From Coraliomargaritaceae bacterium (GTDB lineage Bacteria > Verrucomicrobiota > Verrucomicrobiia > Opitutales > Coraliomargaritaceae), in NCBI GenBank assembly GCA_965656495.1, contig CBFHKU010000004.1, positions 35,702 to 99,701 of the forward strand: a DNA stretch of 64,000 nt, read 5' to 3'. Numbering within the stretch: the first letter of the stretch is position 1; every line of letters begins with the position of its first letter. The notes beneath the pieces were generated by a model. The model saw only the letters and a list, made by a program, of their open reading frames with translations. It had not been told where the DNA came from and made no database searches. The position numbers and the translations under genes were made by a program. Below are positions 3,778 through 55,376 of this stretch, in pieces.

Positions 3778-4962
3778 TTAGTGCTGTGTTTGGCTTGAGA
3801 AATAATCCAAGGCGGCGCGGTTCGCCTCCATGACGGCTTCCTGCAGAACGGGATATGCCGAGCCGTCCTCGCGCAGCATCCCCTGCTTCAAAACACCCTG
3901 GTGTTCATTGAAGCGGTCGATATACTGACAGCGATGATAGCCGATGATGTAGGGCCTGGCACTCGCCTCCGCCAAATAATTGCGATACATCGTCGCGACT
4001 GCTTGCTCGCTCTCTAGTTGCTTCCACATCGTCTTGTCATACTGCGGCGTCGCGAAACTGCATTGATGATCACAAATGAGGATCGGTTTTCCGTATTTCG
4101 CATAGAGCGCATCAAAATATTCTGCCTCAAAACGATCACTGCCGGGCTGAATCGAAAGCACGTCAATATACGGCAAGGCCGCCTCGACCACCACCTCGGG
4201 GTGATCACCCAAAAGATAACGCTCACCAAAAATCAAAACGCCGGGATGCAGACTGCGGGTCGCCTCCCCGATCAATTTATAATGTGCCTGCGCAATGAGC
4301 GCGAGGAATCCCTCGTCCGTGGCAGCTTTGCCCTCGCTCGCACAGTCATCGAGATATTGCTCGTAGCGGATGCGACCCGGTGCATTGGCGGGCAGTTCGC
4401 GAATCGCAATTACCCAATTCGTGCCCCGGGTTCGCAGGGAACGCTCCAAGTCCCACTGCGGGGTGTCCGTCCAATAATACCCGATCAGATTGGGATTGCC
4501 GGGATTGCGGCACATCCAGCGCAGTTGCTTCAACTTCTCCGCCTGCACCTTTGGATCAAAGACATCGGGGTAAAAGAATTCCGCATCGGGAAGGAAATTG
4601 GAATTCCGCTCAAGAAAGGAATCCTCCATGTAGGGCATGCGGGGGTAAATTTCCTGCGGCGAACCATAACCGGCGGTGTTGTAATGCCAGCCTTCCAAGT
4701 CTTCAGCCGCGGCTTCTGAATAACGCGACCAGTCACCCCCGTATGCTTCCGCGAAAATATCGGGCTCGGCAGCTTCCTGCACCGCATTGATGTGATTGAT
4801 CCCCAGCGTGAAAAAGGGCTCGCCCTCCGGATCCAGCAAAACGTGGCGCGCGCCTATTTTGTCCAATCGAAAACGGCCCTCCGCGGCAGAATCGGCCGGG
4901 GCGGATGCATTCGCGGATATGATAGCAGCAGTCATGATGGTATTGAATGATTTGGTTTTCAT
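3778..4962 (-). CDS. secreted putative glycoside hydrolase (TIM-barrel-like; family not recognised, resembles proteins annotated agarase-like)
   Basis: 394-aa ORF with an N-terminal signal-like segment. Contains LLDPEGEPFFTLGINHINAV and YYWTDTPQWDL, patterns typical of GH-clan enzymes. Embedded in the sulfatase operon, with a 3-bp gap to the downstream gene and a 4-bp overlap with the upstream gene. Confidence 0.5.
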   Translation of the reverse strand: MKTKSFNTIMTAAIISANASAPADSAAEGRFRLDKIGARHVLLDPEGEPFFTLGINHINAVQEAAEPDIFAEAYGGDWSRYSEAAAEDLEGWHYNTAGYGSPQEIYPRMPYMEDSFLERNSNFLPDAEFFYPDVFDPKVQAEKLKQLRWMCRNPGNPNLIGYYWTDTPQWDLERSLRTRGTNWVIAIRELPANAPGRIRYEQYLDDCASEGKAATDEGFLALIAQAHYKLIGEATRSLHPGVLIFGERYLLGDHPEVVVEAALPYIDVLSIQPGSDRFEAEYFDALYAKYGKPILICDHQCSFATPQYDKTMWKQLESEQAVATMYRNYLAEASARPYIIGYHRCQYIDRFNEHQGVLKQGMLREDGSAYPVLQEAVMEANRAALDYFSSQTQH

Positions 4963-22039: not shown

Positions 22040-22145
22040 TTAGCGCAAAAAACAAACCACGAATGAAACAAAAGAGGCGCACGTTGCAAGTTGTGGGTTG
22101 TTGGATCGGCACCGTGAAGGCTCAATGGACATCTTCTACTTTTCC

Positions 22146-22730
22146 GGCAGAGCCGGGAACCGCTTATCTTCGCTTATAAACACTAATATTTTTATCGTAT
22201 TGTTTTTAGCATTAGTGGATATAAGCGCCCATTAGCGGTCGCCAGCTAAGCTGGCCTCAGGGCAGATTGTAGGAAACTACGAATCACGCCGATCACGCGA
22301 ATAAAGCATTGCCCGCGAAGGTACGCGAAGGGGAGCTGAAAGGTTAGGAAATGAAACCACGAACGACACGAAAAACACGAACCCGACTGAGCCGGGAACC
22401 ACTGATCTTCGCTTATAAACACCAATATTTTTATCGTATTGTTTTTAGCATTAGTGGATATAAGCACCCATTAGTGGTCGCCAGCTAAGCTGGCCTAAGG
22501 GCAGATTATAGGAAACTACGAATCACGCCGATCACGCGAATAAAGCATTGCCCGCGAAGAGGAGCAGGAAGGTTGGGAAATGGAACCACGAACGACACAA
22601 AAACCACGAACCCGGCAGAGCCGGGAACCGCTTATCTTTGCTTATAAACACTAATATTTTTGCTTTAAGGATAAGCGAAAATTAGCGCCCATTAGCGGTC
22701 GCCAGCTAAGCTGGCCTCAGTGCAGCGCAC
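22146..22730. repeat. tandem repeat, ~229-239-bp unit, about 2.5 copies
   Basis: Units start at 22146, 22385 and 22614 (GGCAGAGCCGGGAACCGCTTATCTTCGCTTATAAACAC...). Copies 1 and 2 are collinear with scattered substitutions and one ~9-bp indel. Copy 3 is rearranged and truncated. Each unit holds the GCCAGC-TAA-GCTGGC hairpin and a CACGAA-iteron segment. Confidence 0.85.
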
Positions 22731-22747
22731 CGGAAAACGTCCGACAT

Positions 22748-23000
22748 CGAACCCCGAACGCTGAAGCGATTTAGTGGTGGGAAGGTATGAAGGTGGAAAA
22801 GTGGGAATGTTTGAAATATGCTGCATCACCACTCCGTGTACTCGCTGCCTCTGTGGTGAGTTCGATGTTCAGCGTTCGATGCTCAATGTTCAAAGTTCCC
22901 TAACCTTCCAACCACTAAATCCCTTCAACGTTCAATGTTCGATGTTCAATGTTCAAAGTTCCCTAACCTTCCCACTTTCCCACCTTCCCACTTTCCCACC
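22748..23000. repeat. long imperfect inverted repeat plus GTTCRA / GGTGGGAA low-complexity repeats
   Basis: The left arm 22748-22807 (CGAACCCCGAACGCTGAAGCGATTTAGTGGTGGGAAGG...) pairs imperfectly with the reverse complement of 22896-22940. TTCCCACTTTCCCACCTTCCCACTTTCCCACC at 22969-23000 is the complement of the left-arm GGTGGGAA motifs. Confidence 0.6.
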
Positions 23001-25710: not shown

Positions 25711-26147
25711 CATTCGTGCTTATTCGTTTCTATTCGTGGTTACCTTCAGTGTTCGGTGTTTAATGTTCGAGGTTCAATGTTCGAGATTCAGCGTTCGGCT
25801 ATCGCGCTACTGCTTTTCAAGCCACGAAAAGCGACAGGATTGTCGCTTCCACGTTTAATCTTATTCGTTTCTATTCGTAGTTAACCTTCGGCGTTCGACC
25901 TCCCCGACTGCTTTCCGACCGCACGAAAAGCGACAGGATTGTCGCTTCCACGTTTAATCTTATTCGTTTCTATTCGTGGTAAACCTTCAACGTTCGGTGT
26001 TCAATGTTCGAGGTTCAGCGTTCGGCTATCGCGCTACTGCTTTCCGATACCACGAAAAGCGACAGGATTGTCGCTTCCACGTTTAATCCCATTCGTGCTT
26101 ATTCGTTTCTATTCGTGGTTAAGCTTCAGCGTTCGGCTATCGCGCTA
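25711..26147. repeat. array of four solo CACGAA-iteron arms interleaved with three REP-like hairpins and GTTCRA repeats
   Basis: Arms (C)ATTCGTGCTTATTCGTTTCTATTCGTGGTTA at 25711, 25860, 25959 and 26090, all in the same orientation. Hairpins CCACGAAAAGCGACA-GGAT-TGTCGCTTCCACG at 25822, 25922 and 26050. The 23-mer TTCAGCGTTCGGCTATCGCGCTA occurs three times; the last copy contains the uvrB stop codon. Confidence 0.8.
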
Positions 26148-36212: not shown

Positions 36213-36278
36213 AATCTTGCCAAATTGCGGCTATAGCTCACTCTCGCAGCTGCATGTGGGCGTAGCTCAGTTGGATAG
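36213..36278 (+). pseudogene. duplicated tRNA-Arg 5' fragment (23 nt) with 43 bp of its upstream region
   Basis: The 66 bp match 36371-36436 with one mismatch. The copy ends after GGATAG (D-loop) and does not continue into a cloverleaf. Confidence 0.7.
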
Positions 36279-36410
36279 GTTCGAGGCGCGGAGCGCCGAC
36301 AGCGCCGGTCAATGCGAAGCATTGAGCCGGAAACATCGGATGTATAAATCCGATGCTCGTAAGGAGGGAAAATCTTGCCAAATTGCGGCTATAGCTCACT
36401 CTCGCAACTG

Positions 36411-36490
<80 letters not shown>

Positions 36491-36897: not shown

Positions 36898-37061
36898 CCC
36901 GAATATCGTACACGCTTCAGAACTGTCTCCAGCGAGGCGCGAGCGGTGTTCGCCAAAAGAGTGCGCCCTCAGGTGGGTGACTGAAAAGCTTACGCACCCG
37001 GAACAGGGCCAGAGCCACTGGTGCACTCGATCTAGTTCGGTGTCTCAAAAGGGACACTACC

Positions 37062-37250
37062 GCTTTTTCTCTCCTGCCACGCAAAGCGACAAGAATGTCG
37101 CTTCCACTAAAGCATCATATGTGGAAGCAGCATACGTGGAAGCGGCAATCCTGCCGCTTTTTCTCTCCTGCCACGCAAAGCGACAAGAGTGTCGCTTCCA
37201 CTAAAGCGCCATACGTGGAAGCGGCAATCCTGCCGCTTTTCCACGAAAAC
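37062..37250. repeat. REP-like hairpin array (two ~80-95-bp units)
   Basis: Alternating hairpins AAGCGACA-AGAR-TGTCGCTT and GAAGCGGCA-ATCC-TGCCGCTT. Same stem family as the hairpins at 25822-26081, in the opposite orientation. Confidence 0.75.
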
Positions 37251-37326: not shown

Positions 37327-37692
37327 CTAGAGGCGATAGGGTTCGCGAATGTCGGGCCACTCCGCCTTGAAATCTTTGACATTGCGCGTGAGCAGGGCGC
37401 AACCCAATTGCCGCGCAGAGGCATAGACGATGGCATCGGGTAGCTTGAGTTTTTTCTCGCGGCGCAGGTGAACGGCGCGCTCGGAAACCGCCGTATTCAA
37501 CTCCATCGTTTTAAAAGCCGCGAGGAATCTACGCACAATGACCGCTTCTTCGGGCGACTCAACTCCTGCCAGCACCTCCATGAAAGTTATCACGCTGATC
37601 CATTTTTCCTCGTAACGCTCCACCTCCGCAGCGGCCTGCGGAATGCCCTTCAGATAGTCGATGAGGATGTTCGTGTCGAAGACCGCCCTCAT
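37327..37692 (-). CDS. vapC: type II toxin VapC (PIN domain)
   Basis: MRAVFDTNILIDYL...ITFMEVL...LPDAIVYASA...LLTRNVKDF carries the PIN acidic residues. The start MRAV (37692) abuts the vapB stop. The track ORF starts 4 codons earlier. Confidence 0.85.
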   Translation of the reverse strand: MRAVFDTNILIDYLKGIPQAAAEVERYEEKWISVITFMEVLAGVESPEEAVIVRRFLAAFKTMELNTAVSERAVHLRREKKLKLPDAIVYASARQLGCALLTRNVKDFKAEWPDIREPYRL

Positions 37693-37913
37693 TCCTGTTT
37701 CCATTCATTCCTCAAGCGTGCCTGATAATTTAAAGCATCAGTTTTTTTGTCTTTCCAAATTCCGTATGCGGCCTGCGAGTCCTGCACCGCCAGTGCCCCG
37801 GTGTAAGCTTCCAATGCTTCACGAATGAGCGCCGCACGCGAACAACCGCGCTCCTCACGTTCTGAATCCAAAACTGCGAGCACCGACTCCGGTATATCGA
37901 CTATCGTTCGCAT
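37689..37913 (-). CDS. vapB: type II antitoxin VapB (ribbon-helix-helix)
   Basis: MRTIVDIPESVLAVLDSEREERGCSRAALIREALEAY is a CopG/RHH-type N-terminus. Lies immediately upstream of vapC. Confidence 0.75.
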   Translation of the reverse strand: MRTIVDIPESVLAVLDSEREERGCSRAALIREALEAYTGALAVQDSQAAYGIWKDKKTDALNYQARLRNEWKQE

Positions 37914-38037
37914 CGTGTTATCATGCCACGTTATCACTTTTCGTCAAGCTTGCATCCGGCAAATCCCGACAAAGCGACTCCCGAAAAGGCTTGAAGCAAA
38001 CGGTGGGAAATCCAGTCTCCTTAATTTCCCATCTTAT

Positions 38038-39138
38038 ATGAAAACTTTGAAATTTGCAGTTCTACCAGGCGATGGCATCGGCCCGGAAGTCATGGATGTC
38101 GCGCTTGATGTCCTCAAAGCGACAGGCGATACCTTCGGCTTTGCGCTCGAATACGAGCACGCTGACATCGGTGGCATCGCCATCGACAACCACGGAGAAG
38201 CTTTCCCAGAGGTCACCAAGAACATCTGTGATGCCAGTGAAGCCATTCTTTTTGGTTCAGTTGGAGGCCCAAAATGGGAAACCCTACCTCCGAAGGATCA
38301 ACCCGAGCGCGCCGCCCTCCTCCCAATCCGGCAAGCCTACAAACTCTACGCCAATGTGCGCCCCGGCCTCCTCTATTCCGAATTGACCGACGCCTCCCCA
38401 CTCAAGGCGGAGCGCATCCCCAACGGCATCGACATCGTCTGCATCCGTGAACTCACCGGCGGAATCTATTTCGGGCAACCCAAAGCCACCACCACCCTTG
38501 AGAACGGCGAACAACAAGCAATCGACACGATGGTCTATCAAACCAGCGAAATCGAGCGCATCGCCCAAGTCGCAATCGATACCGCCAAGGCCCGCGGCGG
38601 CAAAGTCTGCTCCGTTGATAAAGCCAATGTTCTCGAAACTTCCGTCCTCTGGCGGCAGGTCGTCACGGAATACTTCGCGAAGCACGCCCCTGAGATTGAA
38701 CTCAGCCACATGTATGTCGACAACGCCGCCATGCAACTCGCGCGTGACCCCAACCAATTCGACGTCCTCTTCACCGAGAATATGTTCGGCGATATTCTCT
38801 CTGATGAAATGGGTGTGATCTGCGGCTCCCTCGGGATGCTCGCCTCCGCCAGTCTCGGCGCGCAAAACAATTCCCTCGGCTTGCCCTTCGGGCTCTACGA
38901 ACCCTCCGGCGGTACCGCCCCCGACATCGCCGGACAAGGCATCGCCAACCCCTGCGCCCAAATCCTCTCCGCCGCCATGATGCTCCGTTACAGCTTCGGC
39001 GAAAACGAAGCCGCCGACGCTATTGAAGCCGCCGTTAAAAACGCCGTCACCTCCGGCGTCCGCACCGGAGACATCGCCTTCGGCCTCAAGGCAGTCGGCA
39101 CCCAAGAAATGGGCGCCGCGGTACTCAAAAATCTGTAA
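38038..39138 (+). CDS. leuB: 3-isopropylmalate dehydrogenase
   Basis: Has MKTLKFAVLPGDGIGPEV, LFGSVGGPKW, RELTGGIYFG and NMFGDILSDE. The upstream 71 codons of the track ORF overlap vapB antisense and are not part of the gene. Confidence 0.95.
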   Translation: MKTLKFAVLPGDGIGPEVMDVALDVLKATGDTFGFALEYEHADIGGIAIDNHGEAFPEVTKNICDASEAILFGSVGGPKWETLPPKDQPERAALLPIRQAYKLYANVRPGLLYSELTDASPLKAERIPNGIDIVCIRELTGGIYFGQPKATTTLENGEQQAIDTMVYQTSEIERIAQVAIDTAKARGGKVCSVDKANVLETSVLWRQVVTEYFAKHAPEIELSHMYVDNAAMQLARDPNQFDVLFTENMFGDILSDEMGVICGSLGMLASASLGAQNNSLGLPFGLYEPSGGTAPDIAGQGIANPCAQILSAAMMLRYSFGENEAADAIEAAVKNAVTSGVRTGDIAFGLKAVGTQEMGAAVLKNL

Positions 39139-39143
39139 TCATT

Positions 39144-39333
39144 TTAACCACGAATGGACACGAATAATCACGAATTTGAAGGCCCTATTGTACAAGAGGC
39201 GTTTTCGAGATGAATTATCTAAAAATCACTGGCCTCAAAGTTGGCCTTATTTTAAACTTCAAGCACCCAAAACTTGAGTGGGAACGTCTTATCATTTGAA
39301 CATTCGAGTCTATTCGTGTCCATTCGTGGTTAA
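39144..39333 (+). mobile_element. 190-bp TIR-bounded cassette, internally deleted GxxExxY derivative (copy 1)
   Basis: Perfect 23-bp TIRs: TTAACCACGAATGGACACGAATA (39144-39166) and its reverse complement (39311-39333). Retains the N-terminal ~16 codons and C-terminal ~25 codons of the GxxExxY ORF, with an in-frame TGA at the deletion joint. Confidence 0.7.
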
Positions 39334-39439
39334 CTCAATAATCCTTGCCCATGACCTCCGCTGAGATCCGCCAGTCCTTCCTTGATTCCATTTTCACCAA
39401 AAAAATGGGCGTTGCGGTACTCAAAAATCTGTAATCATT

Positions 39440-39873
39440 TTAACCACGAATGGACACGAATAATCACGAATTTGAAGGCCCTCTCGCAAAAGAAGTGTTT
39501 TCGATCGTGGGCGCTGCCTTCGAAGTTTCCAACCAATTGGGCTGTGGTCTTTTGGAAAAACCCTACGAGAACGCTTTAACAGTTGAATTCAAATTGCGTG
39601 AGATTCCCTTTTCCCAACAACCGCGTTTTAAAGTTCATTATAAATCTGTCCCAGTGGGTGAATATATCCCTGACCTCGTTGCCTTTAAAGAAGTTGTGGT
39701 CGACATAAAAACAATAAACCAGATAGGCAATAATGAGCGGGCTCAGATGCTAAATTATCTAAAAATCACCGGCCTCAAAGTTGGCCTTATTTTAAACTTC
39801 AAGCACTCAAAACTTGAGTGGGAACGTCTTATCATTTGAACATTCGAGTCTATTCGTGTCCATTCGTGGTTAA
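39440..39873 (+). mobile_element. 434-bp TIR-bounded cassette carrying an intact GxxExxY gene (copy 2)
   Basis: Same perfect 23-bp TIRs at 39440-39462 and 39851-39873. The ORF start codon lies inside the left TIR. Confidence 0.7.
39450..39839 (+). CDS. GxxExxY family protein (PD-(D/E)XK nuclease superfamily)
   Basis: 129-aa ORF. GLLEKPYENAL is the G-x-x-E-x-x-Y signature. IPDLVAF...VVVDIKT fits a D...(D/E)xK core. Size and layout are typical of the family. Confidence 0.85.
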   Translation: MDTNNHEFEGPLAKEVFSIVGAAFEVSNQLGCGLLEKPYENALTVEFKLREIPFSQQPRFKVHYKSVPVGEYIPDLVAFKEVVVDIKTINQIGNNERAQMLNYLKITGLKVGLILNFKHSKLEWERLII

Positions 39874-39979
39874 CTCAATAATCCTTGCCCATGACCTCCG
39901 CTGAGATCCGCCAGTCCTTCCTTGATTCCATTTTCACCAAAAAAATGGGCGCCGCGGTACTCAAAAATCTGTAATCATT

Positions 39980-40169
39980 TTAACCACGAATGGACACGAA
40001 TAATCACGAATTTGAAGGCCCTATTGTACAAGAGGCGTTTTCGAGATGAATTATCTAAAAATCACCGGCCTCAAAGTTGGCCTTATTTTAAACTTCAAGC
40101 ACCCAAAACTTGAGTGGGAACGTCTTATCATTTGAACATTCGAGTCTATTCGTGTCCATTCGTGGTTAA
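39980..40169 (+). mobile_element. 190-bp TIR-bounded cassette, internally deleted GxxExxY derivative (copy 3)
   Basis: TIRs at 39980-40002 and 40147-40169. Identical to copy 1 except for one substitution seen by eye (CACTGG vs CACCGG). Confidence 0.7.
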
Positions 40170-40186
40170 CTCAATAATCCTTGCCC

Positions 40187-42922
40187 ATGACCTCCGCTGA
40201 GATCCGCCAGTCCTTTCTCGATTTTTTTGAATCCAAAGCGCACACCTCCGTGCCTTCGGCGTCCCTTATGCCGACTTCCCCGAATCTGCTTTTCACGAAC
40301 GCGGGGATGAATCAGTTTGTGCCTTTCTTCCTCGGTACCGAGAAGGCACCCTACTCGCCGCCGCGCGCCGCTGATACCCAGAAATGCATTCGCGCGGGCG
40401 GTAAACATAACGACCTTGAAGACGTGGGTTATGATACCTACCACCATACCTTCTTCGAAATGCTCGGGAATTGGTCCTTCGGCGATTACTTCAAGGCGGA
40501 GGCGATTGAATGGGGTTGGGAATTGTTAACTCAAGTTTGGGGATTTCCACCCGCCCGTCTTTACGCCACGGTTTACGCGCCCGGCGATGGCGATCCCGCC
40601 GAGTTCGATCAGGAAGCCTACGACCTTTGGAAGGTCTTGTTTGAGAAAGCAGGGCTCGACCCCGAGGTCCATATCATCAACGGCAACAAAAAGGACAACT
40701 TCTGGATGATGGGTGAAACCGGCCCCTGCGGTCCCTGCTCCGAACTGCATGTTGACCTCACTCCCGAGGGCGACAGCAAGGGCGCCCTTGTGAACATGGA
40801 TTCCGACCTCTGTATCGAGATTTGGAACCTCGTCTTCATTCAATTCAACGCGAATGCCGACGGCACCTTCTCCGATCTTCCCGCCAAGCATGTCGATACC
40901 GGCATGGGCTTTGAACGCGCCTGCTCCATCATCCAAAACACCAAAGGCCTCACCGATTTCTCGCAGAAACCCACCAACTACGCCACCGATGTTTTTCAGC
41001 CCCTCTTCCGCACCCTCGAATCCCTGAGCGGCAAAACCTATCAGGACATCTACCCCGCCGCCGATACCGAGCCGAGCCAAGCCCTCACCGAAGCGATCGC
41101 CTTCCGAGTGGTCGCCGACCATATCCGCACCCTCGCCTTCTCGATTGCCGACGGCATTCTCCCCGGCAACAACGGCCGCAACTACGTCCTCCGCCGCATC
41201 CTTCGCCGCGCCGTCAAATACGGTCGCAACCTCGGCTTCGACGGTTCCGAACCCTTCCTCCCGAAATTGGTCGATACCCTCGTCGCGGAATTCAGCGCGG
41301 TCTTCCCGGAAATCAAGACCCGCGCCGCCGCGGTCAAAGAAACCCTCGCCGCCGAAGAAAGCAGCTTCAACAAGACCCTCGATCGCGGCCTCCAACTCTT
41401 TGAAAAGCAATGCCAGGACGGCGCGATCTCCGGCGAAGAAGCCTTCACCCTTTACGATACCTACGGTTTCCCGCTCGACCTCACCGAACTCCTCGCCCGC
41501 GAGCGGGGCCTTGAAGTCGATACCGCCGGTTTTGAAGCCTGCATGGAAACCCAACGCACCCGCGCCCGCGCCGCCCAAAAGAAGACCGTTGTCAAAGCGA
41601 TCGAGCTCGAGACCGACGCCCTCACGGAATTCCTCGGCTTCGATCACGACCACTGCGAGGCTCAAATCCTCGAAGTGCACACTCAGGACGGACAAGCATG
41701 GATCATCCCCGACAAAACCGTTCTGTTTACCGAGATGGGCGGACAGGACGGCGACTGCGGCAGCCTCGAGATTGAGGGGGCACACTACCCGATTAGCGCG
41801 ACCCAAAAAGCCGGTCACGCCGTGGCGCATATTTTGCAAGGCAAACTCCCCGAAGGAATCGCGGCGGGCGCAAAGGTTAAGCTCCACCTCGACCGCGACC
41901 GCCGGGCGCCCATCGAAGCACACCACACCGCCACCCACCTCTTGCACTGGGCGCTCCATCAGCACGTCTCGCCCGACGCCACCCAGCAGGGCTCCAGCGT
42001 TTCTCCCGAACGCCTGCGCTTCGATTTCAATTCCAAAGCCCTCAATGCGGATCAGCTCGCAGCCCTCGAGACCGCCGTGAACACCTGCATCGAAAAAGCA
42101 GAAACCGTCTCCTGGAGCGAAGTCCCCCACGCTGAAGTCAAGGATCGCGCCGACGTGATGCAATTCTTTGGCGACAAATACGGCGAGCAGGTGCGGGTCG
42201 TTCAAATCGGCGGCACCGCCCATGCCCTCGACGGTTATTCCATGGAATTATGCGGCGGCACCCACGTGCGCAATACCAGCGAAATCGGCCCTTTTAAAAT
42301 AAAATCCGAAGGCGCAATTGCGGCGGGCATCCGTCGCATTGAAGCGCTCTGCGGTAAAGCCGCCGAAGACTACCTCAAGGAACAAGCGGCGCTGGAAGCA
42401 GACGCCAAAGCCCAACAACTTGAAAAAATCGAGCATCTGAACGCCGCGCTAGCGAAGCTCGGCCTCGACCCCCTTAAAATCCCGGCGGAAGCCAGCCCGG
42501 AAGCGCTTAAAGCACTGGCGGTCGAAGCCGACAAAGCGCTCAAGAAGGCACAGGCCTCCGCGGCTGCCGGTCAAGCGAACGCCCTCCTCGACGCTGCCCG
42601 CACCGGCGATAACGGCGTGAAGGTGCTGGTGGCGGTCGTCGAAGCACCCGACCCCAACGCCCTTAAGACCATGACCAGCCACCTCGCCGGACAACTGGGC
42701 GAATCCCTCGTGGTGCTCGGAGCGGCCTTCGATGGCAAAGTAAGCCTTTGCGCCCAGGCGAGTCCCGCCGCGATTGCCGCCGGACACGAAGCCGGCACCA
42801 TCATTCGCGAGCTCACCGGAAAACTCGGCGGCAAGGGCGGCGGCAAACCGAACTTCGCAATGGGCGGCGCCCCCGACAACCGCGCACTCGCGGAAGTCCT
42901 CGCGGCCTTTGAACCGTCCTAG
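40187..42922 (+). CDS. alaS: alanine--tRNA ligase
   Basis: Has MTSAEIRQSFLDFFESKAH, FTNAGMNQF, WFEMLGNWSFGDYFK-type motifs, the HxxxH editing-domain motif (HHTATHLLH), and a C-terminal DHHA1 region. ATG 40187 is preferred to TTG 40181. Confidence 0.95.
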   Translation: MTSAEIRQSFLDFFESKAHTSVPSASLMPTSPNLLFTNAGMNQFVPFFLGTEKAPYSPPRAADTQKCIRAGGKHNDLEDVGYDTYHHTFFEMLGNWSFGDYFKAEAIEWGWELLTQVWGFPPARLYATVYAPGDGDPAEFDQEAYDLWKVLFEKAGLDPEVHIINGNKKDNFWMMGETGPCGPCSELHVDLTPEGDSKGALVNMDSDLCIEIWNLVFIQFNANADGTFSDLPAKHVDTGMGFERACSIIQNTKGLTDFSQKPTNYATDVFQPLFRTLESLSGKTYQDIYPAADTEPSQALTEAIAFRVVADHIRTLAFSIADGILPGNNGRNYVLRRILRRAVKYGRNLGFDGSEPFLPKLVDTLVAEFSAVFPEIKTRAAAVKETLAAEESSFNKTLDRGLQLFEKQCQDGAISGEEAFTLYDTYGFPLDLTELLARERGLEVDTAGFEACMETQRTRARAAQKKTVVKAIELETDALTEFLGFDHDHCEAQILEVHTQDGQAWIIPDKTVLFTEMGGQDGDCGSLEIEGAHYPISATQKAGHAVAHILQGKLPEGIAAGAKVKLHLDRDRRAPIEAHHTATHLLHWALHQHVSPDATQQGSSVSPERLRFDFNSKALNADQLAALETAVNTCIEKAETVSWSEVPHAEVKDRADVMQFFGDKYGEQVRVVQIGGTAHALDGYSMELCGGTHVRNTSEIGPFKIKSEGAIAAGIRRIEALCGKAAEDYLKEQAALEADAKAQQLEKIEHLNAALAKLGLDPLKIPAEASPEALKALAVEADKALKKAQASAAAGQANALLDAARTGDNGVKVLVAVVEAPDPNALKTMTSHLAGQLGESLVVLGAAFDGKVSLCAQASPAAIAAGHEAGTIIRELTGKLGGKGGGKPNFAMGGAPDNRALAEVLAAFEPS

Positions 42923-52464: not shown

Positions 52465-54273
52465 CTAACCGCCGTCCGAGGTTTTAAGAATCTTAATAAA
52501 GGCATCCTGCGGAATCGAAACACTGCCGATATTCTTCATCCGTTTCTTACCCTCCTTTTGTTTTTCAAGGAGTTTGCGTTTGCGGGAAATATCGCCGCCA
52601 TAACACTTTGCGGTCACGTCCTTCCGGTAAGCACTGATGGTTTCACGCGCCACGACCTTGCCCCCAATCGCCGCCTGCACCGCGATCTTAAACATTTGCC
52701 GAGGAAGGATTTCCTTGAGGCGTTTACAAAGAGCACGCCCCCGACCCTCCGCTTTCTCGATGTGCACAATCGAAGAAAACGCGTCGACCTGTTCCTGATT
52801 CACCAAAATGTCCAGACGGCACAGCTTCGCGCGTTCATATCCGTCCATCTCGTAATCCATCGAGCCGTAGCCGTGGGTGATGCTCTTGAGACGATCGTTG
52901 AAGTCCACGAGGATTTCATTCAGCGGGACACGACACACCAGCATGACGCGGGAATTGTCAATGGTCTCGGTGTGTTCACAGATGCCGCGCTTTTCGCTCA
53001 TCAAAGCCAGCACATCGCCAATCGAATCGCTCGGGATGTGGACCGAGGCCTTGATCATGGGTTCTTCAATAAAGTCGATCTCCGCCGGTTCCGGCAAATG
53101 CACGGGATTGTGCACCTCGATCATGGTTCCATCCGTTTGGGTGACATGATACACAACACTGGGATAGGTTGAAATAACATCGAGGTCGTATTCCCGCCGG
53201 ATGCGTTCCTGAATAATCTCCATGTGCAGGAGGCCGAGGAATCCACAGCGGAAGCCAAAACCCAGCGCTACCGAATTTTCCGACTGATACACAAAGGCGG
53301 CATCATTCAAGCGCAGCTTACCCATCGAGGCCTTGAGTTTGTTGTAATCATTCGTGTCGATCGGGTAAATTCCACTGAAGACCATCGGGCTCACCGCCTT
53401 GTAACCCGGCAACATCTCCTGCGCGAGGGCGTTGCTGTGGGTGATCGTGTCACCGAGCTTGATTTCCGCCACGTCACGGATGTTCGTAACGATATAGCCC
53501 ACGTCTCCCGCTTGCAGGCTTTCCTGTTTCGTCATTGCCGGTGAAAATTTCCCCACCTCCTTGACCTGCGCCTTTCGGCCATCGCTCATCGTCACAATCG
53601 CATCGCTCGCTTTAACCTGCCCCGAGAAGACCCGCACATAACAAATCACGCCCTTAAAGGCATCATAGACGCAGTCAAAGATGAGCACCCGCAAACCCTC
53701 GACCTCCGCCCAGCGCGGCTTTGGCACCCGCGCCACCGCTGCCGCCATGAGATCCTCGACCCCGAGCCCGGACTTGCCGCTCGTCAGAATCGCCTCATCT
53801 GCCGGGATCGCCAGCACGTCCTCCAGTTGCGCCTGAATCGCCGGCACATCCGCACTCGGTAAATCCACCTTGTTGATGACCGGAATAATCTCCAAGCCCT
53901 GTTCCAGCGCCAAATGCGCATTGGCCACCGTCTGCGCCTCAATCCCCTGCGCGGCATCAATCAAAAGCATCGCGCCCTCACAGGCCGCCAAACTGCGCGA
54001 GACCTCATACGAGAAATCCACGTGCCCGGGGGTGTCGATCAAGTTGAAAGTATAATCCTGCCCATCCGCAGCCTTGTATACCATCGAAACCGGATGGCTC
54101 TTAATCGTGATCCCCCGTTCCCGCTCCAAATCCATTGAATCCAGCAACTGGTCCTTCATCTCCCGCAGTTCCACCGTCCGCGTCAATTCCAGGATGCGGT
54201 CCGACAAAGTGGTCTTACCGTGATCCACGTGGGCGATGATGCAAAAATTGCGGGTGTGTTCTAAATCGGGCAT
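52465..54273 (-). CDS. lepA: translation elongation factor 4
   Basis: 602-aa ORF. Has [32 protein letters not shown] and the LepA C-terminal domain. Confidence 0.95.
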   Translation of the reverse strand: MPDLEHTRNFCIIAHVDHGKTTLSDRILELTRTVELREMKDQLLDSMDLERERGITIKSHPVSMVYKAADGQDYTFNLIDTPGHVDFSYEVSRSLAACEGAMLLIDAAQGIEAQTVANAHLALEQGLEIIPVINKVDLPSADVPAIQAQLEDVLAIPADEAILTSGKSGLGVEDLMAAAVARVPKPRWAEVEGLRVLIFDCVYDAFKGVICYVRVFSGQVKASDAIVTMSDGRKAQVKEVGKFSPAMTKQESLQAGDVGYIVTNIRDVAEIKLGDTITHSNALAQEMLPGYKAVSPMVFSGIYPIDTNDYNKLKASMGKLRLNDAAFVYQSENSVALGFGFRCGFLGLLHMEIIQERIRREYDLDVISTYPSVVYHVTQTDGTMIEVHNPVHLPEPAEIDFIEEPMIKASVHIPSDSIGDVLALMSEKRGICEHTETIDNSRVMLVCRVPLNEILVDFNDRLKSITHGYGSMDYEMDGYERAKLCRLDILVNQEQVDAFSSIVHIEKAEGRGRALCKRLKEILPRQMFKIAVQAAIGGKVVARETISAYRKDVTAKCYGGDISRKRKLLEKQKEGKKRMKNIGSVSIPQDAFIKILKTSDGG

Positions 54274-54446
54274 GGCGCAGTCAAACCCTCTACCTTCGTT
54301 CTGGTAGCGGAAAACTCAATCTCTTTGTTCCTCAATATTTCTGGCTTGCTGAAATCGACAAAAAGTAATGCCCTGCAAATAATATGAACAAAATACATTT
54401 TACAGTGTATATTCGTATTTAAGCTATCCTTACACTAACAATTCGC

Positions 54447-55112
54447 ATGATCCGATTCCTACTCTTCCTCAACGCCCTGGTTTTCATTCAACTTCAGGCA
54501 GACAAAATTACGGAATTTACTTTCGATGGCCATCTCTATCAGGTGTATGACGATTTAGAAAGCTGGAACGACGCTCGAGTCGACGCGGCAAGCAAAATAT
54601 ATAGCGGAGTATCCGGCTATCTAGCAGAAATCAACAGTGCTGCGGAAAACACTGCAATTTTCAATGCCCTTCAAGCCAACGACAGCAGCTTTACTCAAAC
54701 GGCTGGTGACGGCGGTGGCGCGCGCTACGTTTGGATCGGTGCCAACGATAGCCTGAACGAAGGCACCTGGGTCTGGGACAATAGCGGCACTAATTTTTGG
54801 ACCGGAGACGGGCAAACCGGTTCCGCACAGGGTGGTAACTACGAGAACTGGGGCAGCAGGGATAACTGGTATGAGCCCGACGATTATCTAGGCAATCAGG
54901 ACGCCGGCGCCATTGCATTGGATGATTGGCCTGTAGGTACAGCCGGAGAATGGAACGATATAGATGGCAATAATACGATGCCCTACATCGTCGAATTTGA
55001 CACCGTGCCCGAATACTCCCAGTTGGGTTTGGTACTAGGGCTGGGTAGCCTTGGCACCCTTCTCTTGCGCAGGCACCGCTCCCGCTCCAAATCCATCGAA
55101 TCCAGCAACTAG
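54447..55112 (+). CDS. cysteine-free C-type lectin-domain protein with PEP-CTERM-like tail
   Basis: 221-aa ORF with a signal peptide. CTLD pattern: W..A...A...[14 protein letters not shown]...[19 protein letters not shown]...NYENW...GEWNDI....YIVEF. The tail is [23 protein letters not shown]. The last ~12 codons are read from the antisense of a duplicated lepA fragment. Confidence 0.75.
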
Positions 55113-55272
55113 TCCTGCATCTCCCGCAGTACCACCGTCCGCGTCAATTCCAGGATGCGGTCCGACAAAGTGGTCTTACCGTGATCCACGTGGGCGATGA
55201 TGCAAAAATTGCGGGTGTGTTCTAAATCGGGCATGGCGCAGTCAAACCCTCTACCTTCGTTCAGGTAGCGGA
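55076..55272 (-). pseudogene. duplicated lepA 5' fragment (about 38 bp upstream plus the first ~53 codons) with an in-frame stop
   Basis: 197 bp collinear with 54115-54311, with about 5 substitutions. Reads [41 protein letters not shown]-stop (TAG from the ACTGG>ACTAG change). Confidence 0.85.
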
Positions 55273-55376
55273 TAGCTTGAGCCCTGACGCTGGTAAATCA
55301 ATCAACGCATCCTGATTCTCCTTTGAATTTGCGCTTTCCATGAATTTTAAAAGGTGTTATTCAATTTTATAAATTA

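Follow-up and report, generated by a model that had tools for sequence, protein, structure and literature searches.

Hairpin-bounded GxxExxY cassettes form a duplicated array between leuB and alaS in a Coraliomargaritaceae bacterium

In the window, that is, the whole 64,000-nt stretch of Coraliomargaritaceae DNA that was analysed, the spacer between leuB and alaS consists of three tandem cassettes, one of them intact and two internally deleted, arranged as follows:

38038-39138 (+): leuB, 3-isopropylmalate dehydrogenase (TIGR00169, 3.4e-141); the first left arm begins 5 nt past its stop codon
39099-39394 (+): tandem unit 1, 296 bp, made up of the leuB end, a short cassette and an alaS-like start (direct-repeat families, alignment)
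39144-39333 (+): short cassette 1, 190 bp, with arms at 39144-39175 and 39302-39333
39334-39439 (+): junction 1, with a chimeric 27-codon ORF at 39351-39434
39440-39873 (+): full cassette, 434 bp, with arms at 39440-39471 and 39842-39873
39450-39839 (+): intact GxxExxY / PDDEXK_3 gene, 129 aa (PF13366, TIGR04256), its ATG within the left arm
39874-39979 (+): junction 2, with a chimeric ORF at 39891-39974; 2 nt differ from junction 1
39980-40169 (+): short cassette 3, 190 bp, with arms at 39980-40011 and 40138-40169
40187-42922 (+): alaS, alanine-tRNA ligase (TIGR00344, 2.1e-245); its ATG lies 17 nt past the last right arm

The 23-mer TTAACCACGAATGGACACGAATA occurs in six mismatch-free copies, on the + strand at 39144, 39440 and 39980 and on the - strand at 39311, 39851 and 40147, against 0.00 matches expected in shuffles. 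A sequence-only reading of this DNA had already delimited the three cassettes and their perfect 23-bp inverted repeat, and both the coordinates and the repeat hold. The pairing that it extended to about 35 bp measures 91% over 32 nt in each cassette, and the ATG does lie inside the left arm, although it is followed there by fewer than the nine or so codons first counted: because the ATG stands at arm base 11, only about 7-8 codons fit. Both outer cassettes are 190 bp long, are 98% identical to each other and lack 244 bp of the ORF, much as the earlier description of near-identical forms missing about 250 bp had it. Short cassette 1 contains a truncated ORF at 39154-39213 (encoding MDTNNHEFEGPIVQEAFSR and a stop) and also keeps the last 27 GxxExxY codons, out of frame, and the short-cassette remnant still matches the full ORF in phmmer at 4.2e-14. 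Short and full cassettes are about 98% identical in their 3' part, whereas the 5' codons kept by the short copies (PIVQEAFS, as opposed to PLAKEVFS in the full copy) differ at 7 of 17 nt, which bears out the claim that they are not decay products of their intact neighbour; they come from a different allele, via recombination.

Each of the two junctions joins 17 nt from upstream of alaS and alaS codons 1-12, through an 18-nt stretch (SIFTKK), to the last 9 codons and stop of leuB, giving one unbroken in-frame alaS-5'/leuB-3' ORF of 27 codons. The co-duplication of gene ends between cassettes had been recognized before; the SIFTKK stretch is an addition. Direct repeats of families D1 and D2 in the spacer have spacings of 296 and 540, and the three copies arose by segmental tandem duplication, in units of 296 and 540 bp. 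The in-situ expansion put forward earlier is therefore retained in the sense of a segmental duplication in which the gene ends were copied too, and set aside as repeated insertion. The first event of the array joined alaS codon ~12-18 to leuB codon -9; unequal exchange and recombination between alleles came after it, and strains differ in copy content. The best reading is that the array arose by segmental tandem duplication and allelic recombination, not by transposition.

The junction sequence is real, because it is present in independent assemblies, and copy number and order differ between strains. One of these loci (L002) is 100% identical to the window over 731 nt in the order short cassette, junction, full cassette; another (L001) has the order junction, full cassette, alaS, so that, unlike in the window, the full cassette adjoins the true alaS. 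Such a difference in order, together with repeat units (296 bp) longer than typical k-mers, is what one might expect if the three-copy array were partly an assembly artefact, produced from a mixture of short- and full-allele strains or from a two-copy locus joined via repeats exceeding the k-mer. We judge this very improbable: mis-joining cannot create the chimeric junction, which is found in three independent assemblies; the L002 match spans a short cassette, a junction and the full cassette; and the junctions differ from each other by 2 nt and the short copies by a few nt, as expected of real paralogous copies.

The middle ORF scores 129.7 bits against TIGR04256 (cut-off 35; 6.3e-38) and 123.1 bits against PF13366 (cut-off 22; 1e-35), so that the GxxExxY / PDDEXK_3 assignment first made from its signature, here GLLEKPY, is upheld by both family models, above their curated cut-offs. 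Across 37 homologues, the catalytic positions E36, D75 and K87 never vary and D85 hardly does, and the N-terminus MDTNxHE is conserved; MDTN[KN]HE corresponds to the first 7 codons, inside the left arm. An AF2 model of the 129-aa protein is alpha/beta with a pLDDT of 82, and in a fold search it matched lambda exonuclease, Cas4 and Hjc weakly, all of these being generic PD-(D/E)XK matches with E above 2e-3. A PDB sequence search found no match to a solved structure, and neither did PADLOC or PHROGs, as defence and phage libraries, return a match. In literature full text we found no description of the genomic behaviour or mobility of GxxExxY, PF13366 or TIGR04256, and nothing on mobility for the arm sequence itself.

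When the leuB-alaS spacer was compared in sister genomes, as had been proposed, the site proved to be occupied throughout the family of genomes compared: L122 has one cassette, L123 a solo hairpin of 45 bp, L127 a remnant in decay, and L124 (6.6e-14 at the orthologous site) and L125 have cassettes with GTTCGAT-type arms that carry PF05635, the 23S-rRNA-IVS protein. A PF05635 cassette stands at the orthologous site in Coraliomargarita algicola, and a search of the fetched loci for further PF05635 cassettes returned only L124 and a fragment in L095. L122 is 390 bp longer than L123 at the site, with flanks that are 99.1-99.8% identical, a presence/absence polymorphism that may be a simple, imprecise deletion; among the sites compared, no truly empty site or recent insertion was found. 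Decay is frequent (L127, L125, L091).

Against L122, the ORF has a dN/dS of 0.08 and a dS of 1.28, compared with 1.14 for leuB and 1.16 for alaS, values at which synonymous sites are near saturation. Because the dS of the ORF is close to that of leuB and alaS, with a dN/dS of 0.08, the cassette looks, on these alignments, like an old and vertically inherited resident of the leuB-alaS site, not a fresh insertion. The right arm is identical at 30 of 32 positions at a dS of ~1.2, and this non-coding arm is thus conserved far past neutral expectation. Since the catalytic residues vary little or not at all, purifying selection is strong and the non-coding right arm is over-conserved, we infer that the GxxExxY protein is probably an active nuclease whose substrate would be its own palindromic arms.

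The same architecture is widespread. Exact copies of the end module, with unrelated flanks and a sharp outer boundary, are present in no fewer than 119 genome stretches, which among the matches listed belong to more than 20 phyla; this dispersal agrees with the selfish cassette of the sequence-only reading. Among the matches listed, a partner arm is present for 74 of 123 modules, element length is mostly 60-300 bp, and short ORF-less forms are more numerous than ORF-bearing ones; a few elements of 430-455 bp hold an intact ORF starting in the arm (L067, L107), and L091 is an independent internal deletion. Internally deleted and ORF-less hairpin elements are common, in keeping with the deletion forms suggested earlier. 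The link between inverted arms and the GxxExxY gene is also general: of 69 GxxExxY genes drawn by protein similarity, 50 have flanking arms, whose scores exceed those of every shuffle (shuffled maximum 10). Tandem arrays are found at other loci too and are a trait of the family.

Each arm, of about 30 bp, is built from three CACGAAT heptamers at 10-bp spacing. Heptamer variants occur in the protein-anchored sample (CACGAAT, CACAGAT, CGCGAAT and CACGGAT), and the two arms of one element match, with an arm-arm complementarity of 85.5% versus 80.4% when right arms are permuted (6.5 sd). Protein clade tracks arm type (73.4% versus 68.8% identity; 0 of 2000 permutations as high), and at its base the stem is lengthened by 1-2 complementary nt just outside AACC/GGTT, where the bases co-vary (64% versus 34%). 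Some elements carry unrelated cargo, namely a 316-aa ORF in L007 and a non-coding cargo in L034, which argues against GxxExxY as the sole mobility factor; an Rfam scan of four loci with unknown cargo gave no match. No 23S rRNA k-mers were present in any fetched locus. The 30-mer arm was found in 4 viral contigs only, and phages are therefore not an obvious main vector.

Elsewhere in the window, between proB and uvrB (25711-26122, - strand), there are four right-arm-like modules (ATTCGTGCTTATTCGTTTCTATTCGTGGTTAA) in a single orientation and without a partner arm, among which GTTCGAG heptad repeats and a GCGACAGGATTGTCGC hairpin are interspersed. As regards other known cassette types, an integron cassette was ruled out by the presence of two inverted arms instead of one attC and by the lack of a GTTRRRY core.

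At the RNA level, the arm stem is the predicted minimum-energy structure, with z of -6.5 for the short cassette and -4.4 for the full cassette, which it closes. This modelled fold agrees with the long stem suggested earlier for each pair of inverted repeats, and it has a parallel in the stems of rRNA intervening sequences (IVSs), which RNase III processes (PMC4990558). Co-orientation with both neighbours is seen for 28 of 37 cassettes, and the upstream stop is usually within ~35 nt of the ATG. On the + strand of the leuB-alaS spacer there is no sigma-70-like promoter, the spacer contains no convincing terminator (two weak 5-bp terminator-like matches are at chance level), and an Rfam scan of it gave solely chance microRNA matches far below threshold. 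Because the genes are co-oriented, the first cassette begins 5 nt past a stop codon and the spacer holds neither such a promoter nor a convincing terminator, the cassettes would be co-transcribed with leuB and alaS. To judge from the fold and from the parallel with IVSs, the arms may pair as a 23-32-bp stem that RNase III would cleave and that would mask the ATG; synthesis of the nuclease might then stay low and occur, for instance, when the stem is melted by a ribosome that terminates just upstream. Complementarity is lacking in the 2-3-nt linkers that separate the heptamers, and the arm mismatches show no enrichment of G-U wobbles on the sense strand (GT+TG 75 versus AC+CA 60), and for these reasons the arms could be protein-binding sites and not a selected RNA stem.

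On balance, we lean, with somewhat better than even confidence, towards a reading in which these are IVS-like, hairpin-bounded cassettes that are co-transcribed with their neighbours, with an RNase III-type stem and an active nuclease as probable components, and in which the array was born by duplication. They might spread without target-site duplication, by a break-and-copy (homing-like) conversion of ORF-less hairpins or by some other hairpin-dependent route, and we would hold, with low confidence, such hairpin-dependent spread to be likelier than DDE-type transposition. The flanks are unrelated, and the ORF-less palindrome of arms is the sole candidate homing target. A bolder proposal, possible but doubtful in our view, is that GxxExxY cassettes are undescribed, pan-bacterial, autonomous selfish elements that target hairpins: the nuclease would recognize and cut an ORF-less palindrome of two adjacent phased-heptamer arms, and repair from a filled copy, with the ~30-bp arms providing the homology, would install the ORF. 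If this were true, the S23p/Avd-like rRNA IVSs would be a sister class on the same plan, and both classes would explain a large share of the intergenic short palindromic repeats in Verrucomicrobiota, Planctomycetota and many other phyla.

Target-site duplication is absent, with a 2-8-bp direct repeat at the boundary of 0-1 of 55 elements, and the cassettes are therefore not classical MITEs; of the MITE-like character first ascribed to them, the inverted ends and the dispersed deletion forms stand, and the classical identity does not. A non-autonomous terminal-inverted-repeat transposon, moved in trans by a transposase encoded elsewhere and with GxxExxY as a passenger, would account for those inverted ends, the excess of ORF-less short forms over ORF-bearing ones, the varying cargo of L007 and L034 and the dispersal of copies among unrelated flanks. 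It is nevertheless made quite improbable by the missing duplications, by outermost arm bases that are less conserved than the inner heptamers, by a start codon and first 7 codons that are built into the arm family-wide, and by the correlation of protein clade with arm type. Moreover, no transposase was seen adjoining any of the elements examined, and where the autonomous form of a MITE or TIR transposon encodes a transposase, the only ORF here is that of the 129-aa PD-(D/E)XK protein.

A host-serving module, in which the arms would act as operon punctuation or as a REP-like signal for mRNA processing and stability and GxxExxY would be a domesticated housekeeping nuclease that does not move, seems rather unlikely to us, although several observations suit it. 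The low dN/dS of 0.08 with a dS equal to that of the flanking genes, the retention of 30 of 32 positions in a non-coding arm, the tight co-oriented placement directly after stop codons and the filling of the leuB-alaS site across the whole family of genomes would all be expected of such a module, but the ORF comes and goes between strains with near-identical flanks and decays frequently, the element is multi-copy and patchy over more than 20 phyla among the matches listed while its arms remain near-identical, an unrelated protein family can replace the cargo at the same site, and the defence and phage libraries gave no match hinting at a known host function.

Under the IVS-like reading that we prefer, the cassettes tie GxxExxY / PDDEXK_3, a very large multi-copy family, to the puzzle of the origin and mobility of rRNA intervening sequences. 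That the gene travels, at most of the loci sampled, with a specific pair of inverted arms whose nucleotide sequence is kept across phyla, and that these arms bear its start codon, suggests a nuclease acting on its own arms. The arms further explain recurring spurious peptides (for example, NHEWTRI and IRVHSWL) and annotated N-terminal extensions, and they lie behind a class of intergenic repeats at which metagenome assemblies break. The cassettes are also markers of hot spots between essential genes.

Several known systems share parts of this organization. The Correia or NEMIS elements of Neisseria are intergenic MITEs of 100-200 bp with inverted ends of ~26 bp that are co-transcribed with their neighbours and form RNase III-processed hairpins; they duplicate TA at the target and are limited to a single genus, and we know of no coding version. 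The cassettes resemble them in their intergenic location, inverted ends and probable co-transcription, and differ in having cross-phylum arms, no target duplication and an ORF-bearing form. REPIN-RAYT systems consist of intergenic hairpin doublets and a single-copy HUH/Y1 transposase, RAYT, with species-specific REPs. Spread hairpin doublets and a protein gene flanked by the same repeats are common to both, whereas the repeat-flanked gene of the cassettes encodes no RAYT-type HUH/Y1 transposase but a multi-copy PD-(D/E)XK nuclease, and its repeat is conserved across phyla. The PD-(D/E)XK homing endonucleases, free-standing or intron-borne, of which I-Ssp6803I is an example, are similar to the cassettes as small nucleases on a selfish insert, with presence and absence between close strains and no target-site duplication; unlike them, the cassettes lack an intron or intein as well as a conserved host target sequence, only their own arms being conserved, and the likeness of the cassette protein to solved nucleases in sequence and fold is generic.

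The 23S rRNA IVS of Coxiella is a 428-nt selfish element whose ATG is preceded by tandem heptamers (GACAGAT) and whose stem RNase III cuts (PMC4990558). IVSs with an S23p/PF05635 ORF, as in Coxiella and Leptospira (PMC4990558), and the GxxExxY cassette both measure ~430 nt, have inverted repeats that form a long stem, carry short tandem (heptamer) repeats at the ATG of a small ORF, either right in front of it or around it, are co-transcribed with a host gene (inferred for the cassette) and show strain-level decay or deletion of the ORF and a sporadic, horizontal-looking distribution. They differ in location, the cassette lying in the mRNA spacer between leuB and alaS and the IVS in helix 25 or 45 of 23S rRNA; in cargo, a PD-(D/E)XK nuclease (PF13366) as opposed to a four-helix-bundle protein (S23p / PF05635); and in heptamer layout, CACGAAT at 10-bp spacing as opposed to tandem 7-mers. 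RNase III processes the IVS stem, and it may also process the stem predicted for the cassette. Judged by analogy of plan, the cassette is an architectural counterpart of the 23S rRNA IVS, with other cargo and outside rRNA.

The leuB-alaS spacer of the window consists of three units, and the sequence-only reading had described it accurately, with three cassettes, perfect 23-bp inverted repeats, a 129-aa ORF and intervening junctions. Profile searches bore out its assignment of the ORF to the GxxExxY family:

leuB, ending at 39138 (TIGR00169, 3.4e-141)
short cassette 1, 39144-39333, 190 bp
full (middle) cassette, 39440-39873, 434 bp
GxxExxY ORF of the full cassette, 39450-39839, 129 aa (PF13366, 1e-35; TIGR04256, 6.3e-38)
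short cassette 3, 39980-40169, 190 bp
alaS, ATG at 40187 (TIGR00344, 2.1e-245)

The 23-mer TTAACCACGAATGGACACGAATA occurs in six perfect copies in the spacer, three per strand (0 expected from shuffles); the arm pairs reach 32 nt at 91% complementarity, and the ATG of the ORF begins at base 11 of the left arm. Short cassettes 1 and 3 are 98% identical and both lack 244 bp of the ORF. In the 5' codons that they keep, 7 of 17 nt are different from the full copy, and several positions are closer to the allele found in L122, a sister strain; their 3' part is ~98% identical to the full copy, so the array is a mosaic of alleles.

Both junctions are built of four segments. The 17 nt that precede alaS come first, then the first 12 alaS codons, then 18 nt (SIFTKK) that may be a decayed form of alaS codons 13-18, and finally the end of leuB, with its last 9 codons and its stop. 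They form intact 27-codon ORFs (MTSAEIRQSFLDSIFTKKMG[VA]AVLKNL*), so that ahead of each cassette, as at the end of leuB, a stop codon closes an ORF 5 nt short of the stem. The junction is real, since it is carried by two independent metagenome contigs: L002, which shares 731 nt with the window at 100% identity in the order short-junction-full, and L001, in the order junction-full-true alaS. Copy content varies from strain to strain, and the three-copy order here is as assembled. The array is segmental in nature, and the earlier idea that it expanded in situ by the element's own action finds no support at this locus. Its construction would need only three steps: a single illegitimate join of alaS codon ~12-18 to leuB codon -9, or a re-integrating circle with an identical product; unequal exchange; and recombination with another allele. 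The proposal of a selfish nuclease cassette with non-autonomous forms holds at the family level; its MITE-like part is not supported here.

The source organism is close to Coraliomargarita (its LeuB shares 89% identity with the C. algicola protein), and the same spacer in sister genomes contains a full cassette, a solo hairpin, a decayed remnant or a PF05635 cassette (LeuB identities are to the window):

L122, LeuB 95%, one full cassette
L123, LeuB 95%, a 45-bp solo hairpin, TTAACCACGAATTGACACGAATGCGCATTGTCCATTCGTGGTTAA
L127, LeuB 89%, a decayed right half
L124 (Coraliomargarita algicola CP138858), LeuB 89%, 4102-4668, a PF05635 gene (6.6e-14)
L125 (4138-4508) and L126, LeuB 90%, a decayed cassette of the L124 type

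The PF05635 gene, for a 23S rRNA intervening sequence protein, lies within 42-nt arms of GAACATC/GTTCGAT heptamers. The flanks of L122 and L123 are 99.1-99.8% identical, so strains that are otherwise nearly the same differ in having the ORF. When the window is compared with L122, the dS of the ORF (1.28; dN 0.10, dN/dS 0.08) is close to that of leuB (1.14) and alaS (1.16), with synonymous sites near saturation, and the non-coding right arm is still identical at 30 of 32 positions. The cassette has thus long been resident at this site. Purifying selection acts on both its protein and its arms, yet the ORF is readily lost. On these sequence comparisons, the leuB-alaS site is a hot spot, occupied over time by cassettes of two different classes.

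In an exact search of one genome per species, the 23-mer was found in at least 119 genome stretches. Among the matches listed, many hosts are Verrucomicrobiota; others belong to Planctomycetota, Chlamydiota, WOR-3, Alpha- and Betaproteobacteria, Nitrospirota, Desulfobacterota, Spirochaetota, Bacteroidota and Chloroflexota, and include a Halonatronum and a Nitrosomonas isolate, and a single isolate, Opitutaceae D2-102, has at least 6 loci. The arms are a pan-bacterial module, with a sharp outer edge at TTAACC, continuing as TTAACCACGAATGGACACGAATA[AG]ACACGAAT, and with flanks on either side that are unrelated from locus to locus. An inverted partner lies within 2.5 kb for 74 of 123 modules, and the elements are mostly 60-300 bp and non-coding (both among the matches listed). 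Elements of 430-455 bp in L067 (Methylomirabilota) and L107 hold an intact GxxExxY gene starting MDTNKHE within the arm, and L091 is an independent internal deletion. The cargo can differ: in a WOR-3 MAG (L007), CACGAAT arms enclose, in a 1012-bp element, an unrelated 316-aa ORF without a Pfam match, which likewise begins within the arm (MNTNKHK), and the 400 bp of non-coding cargo in the L034 element have no Rfam match. Separately, an Opitutaceae sub-family (L020, L025, L030, L065, L069, L089, L115, L119) shares a different interior directly after the 23-mer, for example GGCCTCACTACCGTTCGGC, in place of the third heptamer.

The link between gene and arms is general. Among 80 metagenome loci fetched by protein, 69 had enough flank for arm scoring, and inverted arms scoring at least 14 (shuffled maximum 10) bracket the gene in 50 of them. 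A full-text literature search returned no published description of this association, and we know of none. The heptamer type differs among elements (CACGAAT, CACAGAT, CGCGAAT, CACGGAT) but is shared by the left and right arm of each element; pairing over 30 positions is 85.5%, against 80.4% once right arms are permuted across elements (6.5 sd). Just beyond AACC/GGTT, the first one or two bases also co-vary (64% versus 34%; 0 of 1,000 permutations as high), and there is no target-site duplication (0-1 of 55 elements). The 2-3-nt linkers between heptamers are unpaired, with purines in the left arm and pyrimidines in the right chosen independently, and mismatches of the G-T and A-C kinds are similarly numerous (75 and 60), a pattern with no specific sign of RNA-level over DNA-level constraint. 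Proteins compared without the arm-encoded N-terminus are more alike when their elements share an arm type than when they do not (73.4% versus 68.8%; 0 of 2,000 permutations as high).

In 28 of 37 loci both neighbours point the same way as the gene. The stop codon upstream mostly falls within ~35 nt of the ATG, in some cases in the arm itself, which supplies stop codons in two frames. Arms and hairpins often form clusters or tandem arrays (30 of 213 loci); in L109, hairpin and gene alternate three times. In loci L130-L209, the sequence that borders the left arm on its outer side is often rich in purines and resembles a Shine-Dalgarno site (GGAGG, GAAGG), and several right flanks read CAAAGGAG, so the element may provide ribosome-binding sites to its own ORF as well as to the host gene downstream.

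Across 37 homologues from many phyla (63-84% identity), nearly all proteins begin MDTNxHE; E36 (the GxxE glutamate), D75 (PD) and K87 are the same in all, and D85 in nearly all. The AlphaFold model (pLDDT 82) has an alpha/beta nuclease fold that matches lambda exonuclease, Cas4 and Hjc only weakly and in a generic way, and the 129-aa protein has no sequence match in PDB, PADLOC or PHROGs.

Other repeats occur in the window. Four right-arm-like modules (ATTCGTGCTTATTCGTTTCTATTCGTGGTTAA) at 25711-26122, in the gap between the convergent genes proB and uvrB, all face one way and lack a left partner; together with GTTCGAG/GTTCAAT heptad runs and a GCGACAGGATTGTCGC hairpin they make up a tandem mosaic. 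L191 and L160 contain similar tandem solo-arm runs. Three tandem units of ~230 bp at 22144-22975 carry CACGAAC-type and CATTAGCGG-type arm-like motifs and adjoin a 202-bp element, with no ORF within, whose 43-nt inverted GTTCGAT-heptad arms (22744-22786, 22903-22945) are of the type around the C. algicola PF05635 gene. At 37057-37240, a 76-94-nt repeat built around hairpins GCGACAAGAATGTCGC and GGAAGCGGCAATCCTGCCGCTT is present twice in tandem, and this hairpin motif returns inverted in the 25.8-26.1 kb repeats. Directly upstream of leuB, a two-gene pair (37327-37937, minus strand) looks, from its translations, like a PIN-domain (VapC-like) toxin and a short antitoxin. A second gene end duplicated around inserted DNA lies at 54115-55277, where a 202-bp direct duplication (96% identity) of the lepA 5' end and upstream region brackets a 759-bp insert:

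lepA, 52465-54273, minus strand
C-type-lectin-domain protein encoded by the insert, 54447-55112 (PF00059, 1.9e-06)

A third 5'-end duplication (36213-36436) involves a 66-nt segment, repeated 158 bp upstream at 98% identity, that spans the upstream region and first ~23 nt of tRNA-Arg(TCT) (36414-36490).

Predicted folds of the short (z -6.5) and full (z -4.4) cassettes are closed by the 23-bp stem. The plus strand of the spacer has no sigma-70-like promoter, and the spacer has no convincing terminator, the two plus-strand hits being 5-bp stems in cassette coding remnants, within chance. We propose that the cassettes are co-transcribed with leuB and alaS, that the arm stem would hide the ATG and be processed by RNase III, and that the GxxExxY protein may act as a nuclease on the arms, with spread perhaps by a break-and-copy or hairpin-dependent mode.

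The Coxiella IVS is a 428-nt selfish element within 23S rRNA, in which tandem heptamers (GACAGAT) precede a decaying S23p ORF and RNase III cuts the stem; it has been viewed as a transposition remnant or as having an ORF-encoded mobility function (PMC4990558). The GxxExxY cassettes, with their predicted stem, share this plan but differ from the Coxiella IVS in cargo, repeat phase and location.
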